From positions 5,737 through 69,736 of the forward strand of contig CAYGGE010000002.1 in the NCBI GenBank assembly GCA_964349485.1: DNA of 64,000 bases, written 5' to 3'. How positions within the stretch are numbered: the stretch's first letter is position 1; the number at the start of each line of letters is the position of its first letter. Below the pieces are notes generated by a model. The model had not been told where the DNA came from. It searched no databases and saw only the letters and a program-made list of their open reading frames with translations. The translations under genes and the position numbers were made by a program. This document shows, in pieces, positions 4,610 through 46,171 of this stretch. This DNA is from an uncultured Candidatus Saccharibacteria bacterium. GTDB lineage: Bacteria; Patescibacteriota; UBA1384; CAYGGE01.

Positions 4610-5266
4610 ATGATCCCGTGCCTAACCGGCAGGGGAATTTTTATATCGGAAATTACAAAAACTATGATCAACACTCAAACTCTACAATTTACCGACCAAC
4701 TGACGAAGATCCAGGAGAAAGCTCTGTTGGTGCTTTTAGTTATCCCGCTTGCCGTTTCGATCATTAACGCGACCTATTTAGTTCGTCCGGCCCAAGCTTT
4801 TGAAACGGCCAATCCTATTGAGGAACGACTGATTGACTTAACCAATGCCGAACGGGGACGTATTGGGCTACGAGCTTTAACCTTCAACTCAAAATTATCT
4901 ATCGCGGCCGAACAAAAGGCCACCGACATGTTAGCTAAGGGCTATTTCGATCACCAATCACCTGATGGCCGAGCACCTTGGGATTTCATTGAGAGTACTG
5001 GCTATATTTATCTCAAAGCTGGGGAGAACTTAGCCATCGACTTCCCGGAACTTAGTGAGGTTGTTCCTGCATGGATGGCTAGCCCAACCCACAAAGCCAA
5101 CATTGTCAAACCTGATTATGAAGAGATTGGTATTGCTCATGTACAAGGTAACTTTAATGGTCGCCAAACCACGGTTATTGTTCAAATGTTCGGTACCAAA
5201 CCAGTGACTACTGAGAAAGTGCTCAAAGCACTCGCTGAATCAATTAGTTCTCCCTTACCGTTCTAA
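4610..5266 (+). CDS. CAP/SCP (YkwD-like) domain secreted protein
   Basis: N-terminal hydrophobic segment. CAP motifs LTNAERGR...GYFDHQSPDG...GENLA...W.ASPTHKANI. Confidence 0.7.
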   Translation: MIPCLTGRGIFISEITKTMINTQTLQFTDQLTKIQEKALLVLLVIPLAVSIINATYLVRPAQAFETANPIEERLIDLTNAERGRIGLRALTFNSKLSIAAEQKATDMLAKGYFDHQSPDGRAPWDFIESTGYIYLKAGENLAIDFPELSEVVPAWMASPTHKANIVKPDYEEIGIAHVQGNFNGRQTTVIVQMFGTKPVTTEKVLKALAESISSPLPF

Positions 5267-5305
5267 CTGGTTGTACCTCGTAAGTTCTATGGTTACTAAC
5301 GAGAA

Positions 5306-5341
5306 AACCAGTTAACCAGACAACTAGTGAACTAGACAACC
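5306..5341 (+). repeat. Copy of a dispersed CTAG-containing intergenic motif (AACCAGACAACTAG / CTAGACAACC)
   Basis: Related copies at 8812-8865 and 45939-46001. Confidence 0.4.
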
Positions 5342-5387
5342 ACTCCCGGCTCTTTAAAATTACCCAATGTATCTATAGAATGGACTC

Positions 5388-6803
5388 ATGTCACTAACCT
5401 CTCTTGATCCCATTATCAATTTAGCCAAACGTCGTGGCTTTGTTTTCCCTTCCGCCGAGATTTATGGCGGGACTGGTGGAATTTGGGATTATGGGCCACT
5501 TGGGGTGTTACTCAAAAATAATATCAAAAATGAGTGGTGGAAAGCGGTGATACAGCGACGCTCGGATATGGTACCACTCGATTCGGCGATCATTACCAAG
5601 CACGATGTTCTCAAGGCCTCAGGTCATGTCGATACATTTACCGATCCTTTAGTAGAGTGCAAAAACTGCCACACGCGATACCGTGCTGATAAGCCACCGT
5701 TCGACTTGCCAGGCAATGTGTCTGAAAAAGATGTCGATGCAGTCGCAAAGATTACCAGTATCAATTGCCAGCACTGTGGTAAGAGCGTCTGGACGCCACC
5801 GCGTCGGTTTAACATGATGTTTAAAACGAACTTGGGACCAGTCGATAGTGAAGAGGCGATAGTCTATTTGCGACCGGAGACTGCTCAAGGGATATTCACC
5901 AATTTCAAAAATATCCTTGAAGTTAGCCGAAAGAAACTACCATTTGGTATCGCCCAGATCGGTAAGGCTTTTCGCAATGAGATCCAGACCGGGAACTTCA
6001 TCTTTCGAGACAGGGAATTTGAGCAGATGGAGATTGAGTATTTTGTGGCCCCTGAGGACTCGATACGGGCCCACGAGGCGTGGGTAGGGGAGAGGGAGAA
6101 CTGGTACCTAGATCTCGGTATGAAAAAAGACAACATTCGGATTCGCGAGCACGAGGAACATGAACGGGCCCATTATGCCAAATCAGCGTCGGATATAGAG
6201 TACAATTTCCCAGGCATTGGCTTCTCTGAACTCGAAGGTATCGCCAATCGGGGAGACTACGATCTCATGGCTCATCAGATGGCTTCAGGTAGAGAGATGA
6301 CCTATTTTGATGACACAACGGGCGATAAATTTGTGCCATACGTGATTGAACCGTCGGCTGGCTTAGATCGTGCCGTGTTAGCATTTCTTTGTGATGCATA
6401 TACCGAGTATCCGGATGGGCGGCAGGGGAGCTCGGAAAATTCGCCATCCGAAGTAGGTAATCCAAAAGATCAAAACGAATCCGAAACGGTACTTCATTTG
6501 CATCCTAAACTGGCTCCATATAAAGTCGCGATTCTTCCGCTCATGAAAAAAGAGGGCATGGCCGAGCTGGCTTTGTCGGTGGCCCAGGATTTACGTCAGT
6601 CATTTACAGTTACATATGACGAATCAGCCTCAATCGGGCGACGGTATAGGAGACAGGATGAGATTGGCACGCCCTGGTGTGTGACGATCGATTTTGATTC
6701 CCTTGCTGATCAGACGGTGACGATTCGTGATCGAGACACCATGGCTCAACGACGGGTGGCAATCAAAGAACTGGAAACAGTTATTCGTTCACTGTTGACT
6801 TGA
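5388..6803 (+). CDS. glyQS: Glycyl-tRNA synthetase (class II, GlyQS type)
   Basis: GGTGGIWDYGPLG, FRNEIQTGNFIFRDREFEQMEIEYF (motif 2) and a C-terminal anticodon-binding domain. Confidence 0.9.
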   Translation: MSLTSLDPIINLAKRRGFVFPSAEIYGGTGGIWDYGPLGVLLKNNIKNEWWKAVIQRRSDMVPLDSAIITKHDVLKASGHVDTFTDPLVECKNCHTRYRADKPPFDLPGNVSEKDVDAVAKITSINCQHCGKSVWTPPRRFNMMFKTNLGPVDSEEAIVYLRPETAQGIFTNFKNILEVSRKKLPFGIAQIGKAFRNEIQTGNFIFRDREFEQMEIEYFVAPEDSIRAHEAWVGERENWYLDLGMKKDNIRIREHEEHERAHYAKSASDIEYNFPGIGFSELEGIANRGDYDLMAHQMASGREMTYFDDTTGDKFVPYVIEPSAGLDRAVLAFLCDAYTEYPDGRQGSSENSPSEVGNPKDQNESETVLHLHPKLAPYKVAILPLMKKEGMAELALSVAQDLRQSFTVTYDESASIGRRYRRQDEIGTPWCVTIDFDSLADQTVTIRDRDTMAQRRVAIKELETVIRSLLT

Positions 6804-6830: not shown

Positions 6831-6859
6831 TTTACAATAGTCAGCCAATAGGCTATAAT
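6831..6859 (+). promoter_or_regulatory. Near-consensus sigma70 promoter TTTACA-N17-TATAAT immediately downstream of glyQS
   Basis: Read directly from the sequence. Confidence 0.45.
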
Positions 6860-6888
6860 CATCAACACATTCCCTAATTTGGGTCTGT

Positions 6889-6930
6889 CCAAGGGAGGTC
6901 CTGCGGAGGGTGTCTTCCTTGGTTTTTTTC
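6889..6930 (+). terminator. Hairpin CCAAGGGAGG...CTTCCTTGG followed by TTTTTTTCTT. It is either the glyQS terminator or a leader attenuator.
   Basis: Read directly from the sequence. Confidence 0.5.
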
Positions 6931-7340
6931 TTAGACGTCCAGCCTGTGACAAGGTTGGCCGGCGGGGTGTTGAGCTCGTATGCATCCGCTTGCGAACTGA
7001 GCTTCACCCAAGGCCCGCACCTGGGTAGGTTGAGAATTGCACACCCTTTAGCCGTACTCCGGGGTGTTGCAAGGTGTAAACCCCTAGGTGCGGGCACGCA
7101 TTGACGCCGTTCGTTCGATGCGCCTTCATTGAGCAAACTCATGATTAGGCGATTATGCCATCGAACGACGACGGACACGCACTGACGGTAATCGGTGCGT
7201 TACCCTGAAGATTCCAGCTTGTGCGCCCCTCGCCAGCGAGCAGGGTTGAAGCGCGGCAGTCGAGTCAACGGGGTCCGTTTTCGGATCAATTGATCCAAGC
7301 TTAGCGCTCGTGTCACTGACACGAGCGTTCTGCGTTTTTA
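6931..7340 (+). ncRNA. GC-rich, highly structured non-coding segment (candidate ~400 nt RNA, family unknown) ending in a strong intrinsic terminator
   Basis: No credible ORF. Several long complementary helices: GCCCGCACCT/AGGTGCGGGC, TCGTTCGATG/CATCGAACGA, ACGCAC/GTGCGT, CCCTG/CAGGG. A 10-bp perfect hairpin CGCTCGTGTC-ACT-GACACGAGCG is followed by TTCTGCGTTTTT at 7305-7340. Confidence 0.4.
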
Positions 7341-7354
7341 GTGGAGTTATCCCC

Positions 7355-7383
7355 TTGACGGTGGATGACTGGTGGGATATTAT
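7355..7383 (+). promoter_or_regulatory. mraZ/dcw operon promoter TTGACG-N17-TATTAT
   Basis: Read directly from the sequence. Confidence 0.55.
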
Positions 7384-7430
7384 TATCTTGTAGTGGAAGG
7401 AAGTGGGGAAAAGTGGAAGAGACTGTGGAT
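7361..7430 (+). promoter_or_regulatory. Array of GTGG(G/A)N direct repeats at ~10 bp periodicity. Putative MraZ operator.
   Basis: GTGGAT 7361, GTGGGA 7372, GTGGAA 7393, GTGGGG 7403, GTGGAA 7413, GTGGAT 7425. Confidence 0.45.
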
Positions 7431-7888: not shown

Positions 7889-7966
7889 TTGTCCGTGGAA
7901 GTGGGGTTACTGGGGGTGAGGAGAGCTCCAGTAACCCGTCTTCTCCGGATAAAGGGAGAGAGTCTG

Positions 7967-8815
7967 ATGCACATACCTGTATTACTCAATGAAACTCTCA
8001 CAACTCTTTCACTGAAACCAGGAGATACCGTCATCGATTGTACACTCGGTGGCGGCGGCCACACCCAAGCCATGCTTCGGGTGATAGGTTCAGGCGGCCG
8101 TTTATTGGGCCTAGACATGGACGAGCGTACCTTAAATCAAACCGCAAAACGATTAGCGGGCTATCCAAATGTGAAATTAGTCGCTACACGCTTCGATCGA
8201 TTAGAAGAAGTTGCTAATGAACAGGGTTTCAGCCAAGTCGAGGCGATCCTCTTTGATCTCGGCATGTCGAGCATCCAGCTGGACGACAATGACCGGGGGA
8301 TAAGTTTTCAAGTCGATGCGCCACTGGATATGAGATTTGACCAGAGCGATACGTTGACTGGCGCAGAGATTATCAGAAGGTGGAGCGAATCTGAGCTTGC
8401 CGAGATCTTCTTCCGCTACGGTGATCTCTATGATGCTAAACGCTTTGCCCGAACAATAGTCGAGGCAAGACGTCAGCAACCGATTGAGACCACATGGCAA
8501 CTTGTTAACACGCTTGGACTAAAAAATCCTGGCGTTAAAGCCAAGCTGTTCCAAGCCTTACGGATTGCCACGAATGATGAGATGACGAGTCTCGAACAGG
8601 CGATTCCCCAGGCGGTCAGTTTGCTCAAGCCCGGTGGGCGAGTAGCGATCATCACTTTCCATTCACTGGAAGATCGGATCGTTAAACATCAGTTTCGTGA
8701 TAATCATCTGCTCAAGCTAGTTACCAAGAAACCGATCGTTCCGAGCCAAGAGGAGATTAAACAGAATACAAGAAGTCGCAGTGCGAAACTACGAGTCGCG
8801 CTGAAGGTTACCTAG
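7967..8815 (+). CDS. rsmH: 16S rRNA (cytosine1402-N4)-methyltransferase RsmH (MraW)
   Basis: MHIPVLLNETL start with RBS AAGGGAGAG. The SAM-MTase motifs are conserved. The longer upstream extension in the ORF track is unlikely to be real. Confidence 0.85.
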   Translation: MHIPVLLNETLTTLSLKPGDTVIDCTLGGGGHTQAMLRVIGSGGRLLGLDMDERTLNQTAKRLAGYPNVKLVATRFDRLEEVANEQGFSQVEAILFDLGMSSIQLDDNDRGISFQVDAPLDMRFDQSDTLTGAEIIRRWSESELAEIFFRYGDLYDAKRFARTIVEARRQQPIETTWQLVNTLGLKNPGVKAKLFQALRIATNDEMTSLEQAIPQAVSLLKPGGRVAIITFHSLEDRIVKHQFRDNHLLKLVTKKPIVPSQEEIKQNTRSRSAKLRVALKVT

Positions 8816-8865
8816 TTGTCTGGTTGTCTAGTTATAGATGGAACTAGACGATGAGACTACTAGTG
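8812..8865 (+). repeat. Copy of the CTAG-containing intergenic motif (CTAGTTGTCTGGTTGTCTAGTT ... GGAACTAGACGATGAGACTACTAG)
   Basis: Read directly from the sequence. It overlaps the rsmH stop codon. Confidence 0.4.
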
Positions 8866-8887
8866 AACGCCCCAAAGGAGAGATAAC

Positions 8888-39109: not shown

Positions 39110-39477
39110 TTTACGAACTATACATTATTCGTTAATAACTATTAATTTGTACTGTAGCTCCGGTGAGCGAAATGCCGTTGGTCTCGATTGGTGCAAGGTT
39201 GCCTTTCTAGTTGCCTAGAAGTGTATCGGCAGAGACCGCCGATACGGTATTCCAGTCGCTCAGTCATAAAATAACCAAGAACCGGAAGTGGCGAACCGTG
39301 GGTGCCCGCACGTTTGGTCCACGGACCAAACAGATATGAGGCCGTATCATCCGCCTCTACGATATAAACGAGACGAACGATGACCCAGTTGCAAAATGTT
39401 GAAAGCCCAACGACAAATCGTCACCGAGAGCTATAGGTACTCTAGCATAAGTAGAACATGAATTAAAGGGAAATAAC

Positions 39478-44427: not shown

Positions 44428-44967
44428 TTAGCTTAGTAAGCGTTTAATTTCATCATGCTTCTCTGGGTGTTTTTCTAACCAAAGATGAACGCCTCGCTCT
44501 ACGTTTTCAGGGGTTGGAACATAACTAATAACATTCAGATTAGCGGGCTGGTTGATCGGTTCTGGATCGTACTTTCGTTTCAGCTTTAGGATAATTTCAA
44601 TAGCTCTAAGTCTAACAGTCCAGTCTATATCACTAAGATACTCATAGGTCTTAGCGCCATCTTTTTCAATGGCTGTGGCATTGATAGTTTTTGTTGCCAA
44701 TGTAGCGGCCTTTAGTAAGTCAGCTACCCACTTATCAGATAATCCTGATTCTTCTAGCTGATCTGAAAAATCAAGTTTTCTCAAGTTCTCGTGGCCTATC
44801 TGTGCTGCGCTTTCTCGACTAGTCACATCATAAGCTCTAGACGCTGCTTCTGTTGCATTCCTGGTCTCAATGTACTCTTTGACGAAGACATGTTCTTTGA
44901 TCGTTTTTGGAGGACGTGTAGACATGCTATTGTCGGGTCGCCACAGTGTGCTAGAGATCCACGACAT
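44428..44967 (-). CDS. Phage terminase small subunit-like protein
   Basis: HVFVKEYIETRNATEAASRAYDV...IGHENLRK resembles the Terminase_2/P27-type HTH region. Confidence 0.5.
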   Translation of the reverse strand: MSWISSTLWRPDNSMSTRPPKTIKEHVFVKEYIETRNATEAASRAYDVTSRESAAQIGHENLRKLDFSDQLEESGLSDKWVADLLKAATLATKTINATAIEKDGAKTYEYLSDIDWTVRLRAIEIILKLKRKYDPEPINQPANLNVISYVPTPENVERGVHLWLEKHPEKHDEIKRLLS

Positions 44968-45874
44968 TGTTAATAATGAGTGGGGTTATCGTACCAGGAA
45001 GCTGAAGAAAACGGGTGGTAAACCACTCCATCCCTCCATGCTCTACGACATGTTTAAGAACCCGCTTTACTATGGTCAAAACATCCGTCCTGATGGAACG
45101 GTCCACCAATGTGCCCATAAGACCATGGTGACAGAAGAGGAGTTTTGGCGAGCTCAAATCTTACTTGGCCGTAAAGGACGCACCCGTTCTAAAACCCACA
45201 CATTCGCCTACACGGGGTTAATTCAATGTGGGGAGTGTGGATGTGCCGTGACAGCCGAAGAGAAGCATAAGATCAATTTAAACGGTGGTATGCGGCACTA
45301 TATTTACTACCACTGCACGAAAAAGAAGCTCGATCACAAATGTACTCAACCATCATTTGAGCAAAAGGCTCTCGAGCGCCAAGTTGATGCCCAATTGGAG
45401 AGAATGGCGATCTCAGAGAAGTTCAAGGACTGGGCAATTAAATATTTAAAAGAAACCAGCGAAGATCAGATGAGTCAGTACAATCAAATTACCAAAACGC
45501 AGCAAAGCGCTTATGCTGATGTCGAGAAGAAGCTTGGCAAATTGCTTGATCTAAAACTGAACGAGCTCATAACCGACGAAGAGTACAAGACTAGTAAAGA
45601 ACAATTACTAGCCGAACAAGTCGGTATCGAAGAGCAACTAAAGGCAAATAAGTACAGCTCACATAATTGGATCGAACTAGCCGAAAAAACCTTTGATTTT
45701 GCCTGTCACGCCCGTTACTGGTTCCAAAATGGTACCCTTGAAGATAAAAAAATAATCCTTCAAACCATCGGAGGATCGAACCTCTCGCTGAAGGACAAAC
45801 AACTACGATTTGAACCAGATAATATCTTCACTGTGCTGGCAAATCGGGACAAAAATTCGGATTGGCAGGGGTAG
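44870..45874 (+). pseudogene. Large serine recombinase remnant. Recombinase domain, Zn ribbon and coiled coil are present. The N-terminal resolvase catalytic domain is missing.
   Basis: ...GYRTRKLKKTGGKPL..., CGECGC...YYHC zinc ribbon, C-terminal coiled coil. The stop overlaps the tRNA-Trp 3' end. Confidence 0.6.
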
Positions 45875-45938: not shown

Positions 45939-46001
45939 GCTAGCTATCTGGTAGCTAGTTGTCTGGTTTTTATACCTAACTAGACAACTAGATTACTAGA
46001 C
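45939..46001 (+). repeat. Copy of the CTAG-containing intergenic motif with inverted repeat CTAGTTGTC...GACAACTAG
   Basis: Read directly from the sequence. It lies between tRNA-Trp and rpmG. Confidence 0.4.
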
Positions 46002-46003
46002 AT

Positions 46004-46171
46004 CTATTTAACTTCTTTATGTGCAGTGGTTTTCATGCATTGTGGGCAGTATTTTTTGAGTTGCATGCGATCCGTACCAGAGTTGATCTTATTCTTACTG
46101 GTTCGATAATTAGCCCGACCACATTCTGGGCAGGATAACGAAAACTCGAAGCGGTTACCTTTTTTAGCCAT
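46004..46171 (-). CDS. rpmG: Ribosomal protein bL33
   Basis: MAKKGNRFEFSLSCPECGRANYRTSKNKIN...KKYCPQCMKTTAHKEVK. Not in the ORF track because it is under 60 aa. Confidence 0.8.
   Translation of the reverse strand: MAKKGNRFEFSLSCPECGRANYRTSKNKINSGTDRMQLKKYCPQCMKTTAHKEVK

Follow-up and report, generated by a model that had tools for sequence, protein, structure and literature searches.

A CTAG motif as the probable core of a young, lineage-specific family of short-unit intergenic repeats that start at stop codons

The palindromes of the REP family carry a conserved GTAG tetranucleotide at their 5' end. REPs are able to stabilise mRNA, to attenuate transcription and to act on ribosomes when situated within 15 nt of a stop codon (PMC5082802). 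In cyanobacteria, hairpins are formed between the genes of operons, e.g. hupS-hupL, by the 7-bp repeats termed STRR, whose role possibly lies in transcript stability (PMC2670836). Insertion sequences of the IS630 and IS5 types, as well as the MITEs related to them, target the TA dinucleotide within CTAG or YTAA (PMC2170065, PMC3189936). Our search of the literature for such repeats in Patescibacteria or Saccharibacteria found nothing relevant.

In the present study we analysed a dispersed CTAG-rich motif within a 64-kb stretch of DNA (hereafter referred to as the window). The original prediction had placed copies of this motif at positions 5306-5341, 8812-8865 and 45939-46001, and the sequences were indeed present at all three locations. 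The exact 12-mer CTAGTTGTCTGG occurs at 5316-5327 (- strand), 8812-8823 (+) and 45955-45966 (+) of the window, and the identity shared by the three sites extends to a 14-mer, CTAGTTGTCTGGTT. Three copies of the 14-mer were detected in the window, as compared with a mean of 0.00 in 100 shuffles:

5314..5327, - strand: copy 1 of the 14-mer CTAGTTGTCTGGTT, exact match
8812..8825, + strand: copy 2 of the 14-mer, exact match
45955..45968, + strand: copy 3 of the 14-mer, exact match, with an inverted partner, CTAGTTGTCTAGTT, at 45978-45991 (- strand)

All six copies of the shorter word GTTGTCTRG in the window are located inside these sites (1-3) and are intergenic. The phased pattern CTRG-N4-CTRG-N4-CTRG was found in five copies in the window (0.04 expected), and is confined to the same three sites. 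Since approximately 90% of the window is occupied by coding or tRNA sequences and only about 10% is intergenic, the intergenic position of all three clusters does not reflect chance placement. The premise that CTAG is under-represented fails for this genome, as 190 occurrences were observed versus 184 expected from trinucleotide frequencies. The gene labels assigned earlier (glyQS, rsmH, tRNA-Trp and rpmG) are correct: GlyRS, MraZ, RsmH and FtsI were identified by NCBIfam, tRNA-Trp by ARAGORN together with Rfam, and L33 by Pfam on the called gene. The landmarks that border the motif copies are as follows:

5388: GlyRS start codon (ATG)
8813-8815: RsmH stop codon
45863-45936, - strand: tRNA-Trp
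46004-46171, - strand: rpmG

The window was extended using contigs of the same strain, which gave approximately 78 kb of reachable sequence of this organism. A search of the ~78 kb with a profile of the arms revealed no family copies beyond four sites, i.e. the three described above and one further, degenerate copy (site 4). A possible relic, CTAGTTGCCTAG, with one mismatch to the arm of site 3, is located at 39207..39218 (+) in intergenic DNA beside tRNA-Pro; its nhmmer E value is 11, and this low-confidence match may be due to chance. The commonest 9-mer, GCTCTTTAA, which adjoins site 1, was dropped, as its remaining copies are mostly coding and unrelated.

Analysis of the four sites revealed that each of them is an array of a single 8-nt unit, CTRGTTnn, whose complement reads nnAACYAG. 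An array contains 3-5 units, and the usual layout is that of two inverted arrays, which let the DNA or the transcript form a hairpin of the 20-bp class (55-75 nt). The elements, which occupy gene junctions that are otherwise minimal, are composed of the following parts:

5264..5341: site 1, whole element, between the stop codon of a CAP/YkwD-family gene (TAA 5264-5266) and the glyQS promoter
5264..5314, + strand: hairpin of site 1, UAACUGGUU ... AACCAGUUA, with an inner CUCGU/ACGAG stem
5306..5341, + strand: direct 8-nt array of site 1, AACCAGTT AACCAGAC AACTAGTG AACTAGAC AACC, with period-8 self-similarity and phased CTRG
8807..8868: site 2, palindromic, between the rsmH stop codon and an ftsL-like gene (ATG 8888), with arms 8807-8833 / 8842-8868 and an 8-nt loop
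45940..46006: site 3, palindromic, filling the gap from the rpmG stop codon (TAG, - strand, 46004-46006) to the 5' end of tRNA-Trp (45936)
L321:12386-12462 (window-equivalent 64577-64653): site 4, degenerate copy AACTGACAACTAGTTACCTTAAGTAACTAGACAAC, about 0.6 kb past the window end

Site 4, found on the extension of the window by a same-strain contig (L321), lies after the stop codon of a pilC-type gene and before a pilin gene. Sites 1 and 4 are largely direct arrays, and sites 2 and 3 are inverted. No two sites agree in unit number, loop or overall layout; it is the arms that align. With arms of 27 nt (78% complementary), site 2 is the longest inverted repeat of the 64-kb window. At site 3, the palindrome extends from 45941 to 46006, and the core arms (45955-45968 / 45978-45991) are 14 nt long and 93% complementary. 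The inverted repeat CTAGTTGTC-N16-GACAACTAG proposed for this site is present, but its spacer comprises 19 nt (45964-45982) and not 16.

The predicted folding energies were as follows: (i) -21.9 kcal/mol on the + strand and -30.9 kcal/mol (z -2.7) on the - strand for the hairpin of site 1, (ii) -29.4 kcal/mol (z -5.2) for site 2, (iii) -29.5 kcal/mol (z -5.5) on the + strand and -22.2 kcal/mol (z -2.4) on the transcribed - strand for site 3, and (iv) -35.8 kcal/mol (z -4.4) for site 4. At sites 2 and 4 it is the sense strand that folds better, at sites 1 and 3 the antisense strand. Such a lack of strand preference fits an element inserted in either orientation. None of the elements has a match in Rfam, in which only sub-threshold, generic hairpin matches of site 3 to models of miRNA precursors were obtained.

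A feature common to all four elements is their start, which falls on the stop codon of the gene upstream:

Site 1: CAP/YkwD-family gene, TAA 5264-5266, with CTGGTTGT directly after the stop
Site 2: rsmH, TAG 8813-8815, the stop being the first CTAG of the element
Site 3: rpmG, TAG, the stop being the first unit of the element
Site 4: pilC-type gene, TAG, with the hairpin's first paired base 4 nt further downstream

At the overlap of site 2 with the end of rsmH, which had been pointed out earlier, the TAG is supplied by the element itself. The elements are rich in stop codons: each site contains 7-10 of them, distributed over all three sense frames, versus 3.7 expected per 70 nt.

Several other features were observed around sites 1 and 2. 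In the start region of glyQS (window 5373-5390), the ATG lacks a Shine-Dalgarno sequence and is preceded by a -10-like box, TAGAAT, that ends 7 nt ahead of it; the corresponding boxes of two relatives (L191:~475-492 and L194:~5635-5652) are TAAAAT and TACAAT. Judging by these sequences, the mRNA from which glyQS is translated in this clade is probably leaderless or nearly so. The glyQS-mraZ intergenic space (6831-7340, +) begins with a sigma-70-like promoter, TTTACA-17-TATAAT (6831-6859), followed by approximately 450 nt of G+C-rich sequence and a strong canonical terminator with a T-run (7303-7329). This region contains no ORF with a Pfam match and has no Rfam match at E<=1; it may represent an unannotated non-coding RNA or a decayed gene. 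The relatives keep a long glyQS-mraZ gap, in which little conservation outside the mraZ promoter was revealed by blastn. The mraZ promoter itself (TTGACG-17-TATTAT; 7355-7430, +) is followed by four GTGG(A/G) boxes at a spacing of about 10 nt (7393-7430), and both promoter and boxes are almost invariant across four genomes of the clade. This sequence looks like the MraZ operator. Finally, the mraZ-rsmH spacer contains a strong hairpin (7889-7952, +; -40.6 kcal/mol, z -4.9) without an Rfam match; the same hairpin is present in a relative of 78% identity (L191:3079-3132), where an A-to-G change in the 3' arm converts a U-A pair into G-U.

The neighbourhood of site 3 may also carry traces of another element. 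Next to the 3' end of tRNA-Trp (45863) lies an N-terminally truncated gene of a large serine recombinase (44870-45874), with Zn_ribbon_recom as its only domain; it overlaps a small-terminase-like gene (44428-44967; Terminase_2), beyond which there are several ORFs without a family match. The genes following rpmG/tRNA-Trp differ in the relatives, and the region 44428-45874 looks like the remnant of an integrated element.

We investigated whether the motif is shared by other strains and by related bacteria. Contigs from four metagenome samples are 100% identical to the window, and the sequence of site 3 is identical in three other contigs. No empty-site allele was found among the contigs of the four samples, all 100% identical. 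The relatives were retrieved with RsmH, which gave a clade at 59-78% identity, and with L33 (60-85%), and the comparison set consisted of seven loci with a total length of 88 kb. Against GTDB species representatives, the best GlyRS identity among the matches listed was 55% (Dehalococcoidia, Berkelbacteria). The host is not a cyanobacterium, as indicated by the group I intron of its 23S rRNA gene, the presence of only two HIP1 sequences (GCGATCGC) in the window and the GlyRS matches listed. The 23S rRNA gene is situated upstream of the window (L324:1-3229, window-equivalent -8015 to -4787) and is followed by 5S rRNA. Its intron occupies L324:473-720, and an ORF encoding a LAGLIDADG homing endonuclease (L324:993-1463) lies just downstream of the intron, inside the 23S match. 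Such an arrangement is typical of bacteria of the candidate phyla radiation and gives a hint as to the affiliation of the host, an uncultured lineage that is probably Patescibacteria-like.

The gene order is conserved in the relatives, and none of their seven loci (88 kb) contains the motif, whether searched for as GTTGTCTRG, as the phased array or with the arm profile. The gap between rsmH and ftsL, which is 72 nt in the analysed organism, has a length of only 12-13 nt in its two closest relatives (76-78% identity; L191 and L192), and their junction contains no hairpin. This difference in length points to site 2 as an addition in the lineage of the analysed organism. At the position of site 1, one of these relatives (L191) has the same C-terminal codons and TAA stop, followed by a hairpin and T-run terminator, and a canonical terminator of this type is also present in a third relative (L194). 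In the rpmG/tRNA-Trp gap of another relative (L199), an unrelated G+C-rich hairpin was found.

A different repeat was identified in L193 (GCA_034680565.1), which carries its own element of approximately 150 nt in two copies of opposite orientation (L193:2296-2445 and L193:5722-5880). The copies match each other with nhmmer E values of 1e-45 to 1e-50, and both start at stop codons, namely those of rsmH and mraY. The arms of this element are built of 7-nt units (TAACAAC/TGACAAC) around a shared core, GAGTCCTTCGGACGTTTTATAGTTT, and a 12-mer, AACTGACAACTA, is common to an arm of this element and to site 4. The RsmH of L193 is only 5 residues longer, and in both organisms the respective repeat overlaps the end of the rsmH reading frame. 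Several repeat families of one style, each lineage-specific and located at stop codons, are thus present in the clade. A further relative, L198, has a short TAACAAT/TAACAAG run before rpmG. In the same locus, the sequence directly after the rpmG stop codon (L198:10169-10185), TAGTTCACTAGTA, contains an 11-mer, GTTCACTAGTA, which also ends site 2 (8858-8868, minus strand); the match may have arisen by chance or be what is left of a repeat of this style.

What the elements do, if anything, can be read in several ways. One explanation is that the hairpins are selected for an RNA function, i.e. as a processing or RNase III site, a 3'-end stabiliser or an attenuator, and were recruited repeatedly at gene ends, their shared sequence resulting from gene conversion or the copying of modules. 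The strong folding at sites 2, 3 and 4 (z -4.4 to -5.5) and the start of every element at a stop codon are in agreement with this, as are the hairpin of unrelated sequence kept by L199 between rpmG and tRNA-Trp and the terminator hairpins at the site-1 position of the relatives. However, none of the four hairpins is followed by a U-tract or T-run and none of the sites was found in the terminator scan, though canonical terminators are present elsewhere in the genome; moreover, at two of the four sites it is the antisense strand that is more stable, the short rsmH-ftsL junction of the closest relatives does without a hairpin, and no matching family exists in Rfam. We therefore regard selection for an RNA function as unlikely. 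We consider it highly improbable that the motif is a DNA-uptake signal or a genome-maintenance word read by the type IV pilus/competence machinery encoded in the window. It is true that the 12-14-mer is conserved exactly and forms inverted pairs at gene ends (the DUS of Neisseria often occur as inverted pairs behind genes), and that a type IV pilus cluster is present, with site 4 lying between its pilC-type and pilin genes. Known uptake sequences, however, occur about once per kb and also inside coding DNA, whereas the density observed here is roughly one per 20 kb (4 sites in 78 kb), with no copy inside coding DNA. Nor did viral contigs contain matches above chance: the 14-mer was detected in 107 stretches, and each of the 80 listed carries a single match, which we read as chance background. 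Integron attC sites and CRISPR were also considered and rejected, as the sequences show neither RYYYAAC/GTTRRRY ends nor a cassette array nor regular spacers.

Ribbon-helix-helix (RHH) proteins provide another model, since they read short tandem units: MetJ binds 8-bp met boxes, omega 7-bp heptads and ParG 4+4-bp boxes. By analogy, the arrays could be an operator or a centromere-like site for a protein of this kind, with the 14-mer as its putative high-affinity core. Their strict 8-nt phasing, the occurrence of the units as direct repeats at sites 1 and 4 and as inverted ones at sites 2 and 3, and a perfectly conserved core with drifting flanks would suit such a protein; a constant 12-14-mer with variable flanks can also indicate selection for a sequence-specific binder. 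In addition, the units AGACAACT / AGACAACC resemble the met-box AGACGTCT at 5-6 of 8 positions, and site 1 overlaps a -35-like sequence, TAGACA. This explanation nevertheless appears rather improbable in view of the absence of the motif from the orthologous junctions and from the 88 kb of the relatives, and of the flanking genes (glyQS, ftsL/ftsI, tRNA-Trp and pilin), which form no obvious regulon. Neither site 2 nor site 3 is located at a promoter, the small ORFs tested yielded no RHH protein and no further candidate regulator, and the MraZ boxes of the clade are GTGG repeats (7393-7430) unrelated to the motif. Two related proposals were rejected. As a general promoter element the motif fails, because only site 1 has a -35-like sequence with a suitably spaced -10 (TAGACA at 5333, 16 nt, TAAAAT in the promoter scan), an arrangement that does not extend to the other sites. 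A role as MraZ box was dismissed, since the boxes conserved in the clade are GTGG repeats; the 7393-7430 region lacks the CTAG motif. We infer that the elements are not conserved protein-binding regulatory sites.

The repeat family described here is real, young and lineage-specific, and represents an ordinary kind of small dispersed repeat. In the best reading of the data, the CTAG motif is the conserved core of this small intergenic family. On the whole, we consider it fairly probable that the elements are lineage-specific, dispersed palindromic intergenic repeats of short tandem units, with any effect most likely exerted at the RNA level. Of the three options put forward in the original prediction (regulator binding site, REP-like element, MITE footprint), it is the REP/MITE-like alternative that is favoured, in that the copies are intergenic, palindromic, able to form hairpins and absent from orthologous junctions, one of which holds a different repeat in a relative. 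The option of a conserved regulator site is not supported, given the absence of the motif from 88 kb of the relatives and the lack of an obvious function shared by the four flanking gene sets.

Most likely, the elements originated as a selfish or neutral repeat that was copied into gene junctions and grew by slippage. Their arrival would postdate the split of this lineage from its sequenced relatives. They probably entered by insertion, or by being copied in, at the TA of a stop codon, after which the 8-nt unit would have multiplied through local slippage. Such copies would be kept at gene ends, where the few stop-proximal nucleotides may be the only dispensable DNA of these junctions. Because the units carry TAG/TAA in all three frames, insertion would cost the upstream protein nothing, and an element so rich in stops could even overlap the end of a reading frame. 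The compactness of the junctions would be the simplest explanation of the stop-codon position. By analogy with known elements, a preference for TA targets in CTAG or YTAR would produce the same picture, and with four copies it is inseparable from the repeat unit. Neither the window nor its extensions contained a transposase, a RAYT or any other mobilising gene, and no parent IS was found in these sequences or in the loci of the relatives. If functional, the repeat might act, as do REP or STRR elements, as an RNA hairpin at the 3' end of the upstream cistron. It could then shield this cistron from 3'-5' exonucleases, attenuate transcription in part or, as its stem starts right at the stop codon, interfere with terminating ribosomes.

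Metagenomic data provided hints of a broader distribution. The perfect palindrome had no matches in JGI metagenomes, and the degenerate 3-unit phased pattern gave, among the matches listed, many or mostly plain 8-nt microsatellites. Nevertheless, intergenic inverted pairs of degenerate 8-nt CTRGTTnn/nnAACYAG arrays were found in unrelated contigs (L214, L220, L222, L254, L257, L259, L260, L261 and L280) with GC contents of 0.28-0.71; some of these pairs immediately follow a stop codon (L222) or precede a tRNA gene (L259). These arrays are a lead rather than a result, because the search pattern selected for them. It is a speculative and quite improbable idea that the elements of the window, the 7-nt-unit element of L193 and the metagenomic 8-nt arrays form one undescribed class, i.e. 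stop-rich, short-unit hairpin repeats that colonise post-stop positions in many bacteria and share a mechanism (a dedicated binder/nuclease or stop-targeted insertion). That similar inverted arrays of 7-8-nt units occur well beyond cyanobacteria is a hint worth a systematic survey rather than a fact established here. For annotation, it is worth mentioning that some gene junctions of this lineage contain young hairpin repeats, which provide the upstream gene with its stop codon and could pass for regulatory sites or small RNAs. If abundant genome-wide, they would be a handy strain marker and a natural experiment on the effect of stop-codon hairpins on operon expression in a reduced genome.

Comparison with known systems shows that each of them resembles the elements in part. 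Operators of RHH proteins (MetJ, omega, ParG) are likewise composed of tandem 7-8-bp units in direct and inverted arrangement, but they are located at the promoters of a regulon or in a plasmid centromere and are conserved together with the protein, whereas no conservation, regulon or candidate protein was found in this case. Small MITEs derived from IS630/Tc1 or IS5 elements share with the repeats their terminal inverted repeats (sites 2 and 3), a size of tens of nucleotides and a variable presence between relatives. TA or CTAG borders sites 2 and 3 on both sides, and CTAA/CTAG borders site 1; since CTAG itself belongs to the repeat unit, a target-site duplication would be inseparable from it. 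Unlike typical MITEs, the elements have no common full-length consensus or fixed structure, and only the arms are shared.

The REP/BIME elements of Enterobacteria and Pseudomonas are similar in being extragenic, imperfect palindromes that are species-specific, close to stop codons and often situated between co-directional genes. The arms of the elements described here, however, begin with CTAG or CTGG and not with a 5' GTAG, they consist of tandem 8-nt units, and the elements (55-75 nt) are longer than a single REP. Genomes with REPs contain tens to hundreds of copies and a cognate RAYT (TnpA-REP) gene; in the ~78 kb, there are four copies and no RAYT or transposase-like gene. The closest analogue is the STRR, which are also dispersed, intergenic and hairpin-forming and are built of short tandem units (7 bp in STRR, 8 nt here and 7 nt in L193); unit length and sequence differ, the known heptamers are absent and the host is not a cyanobacterium. 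As each known kind matches only in part, the motif is therefore not filed as a member of any one of them, and is best described as working like the STRR, REP and MITE elements.
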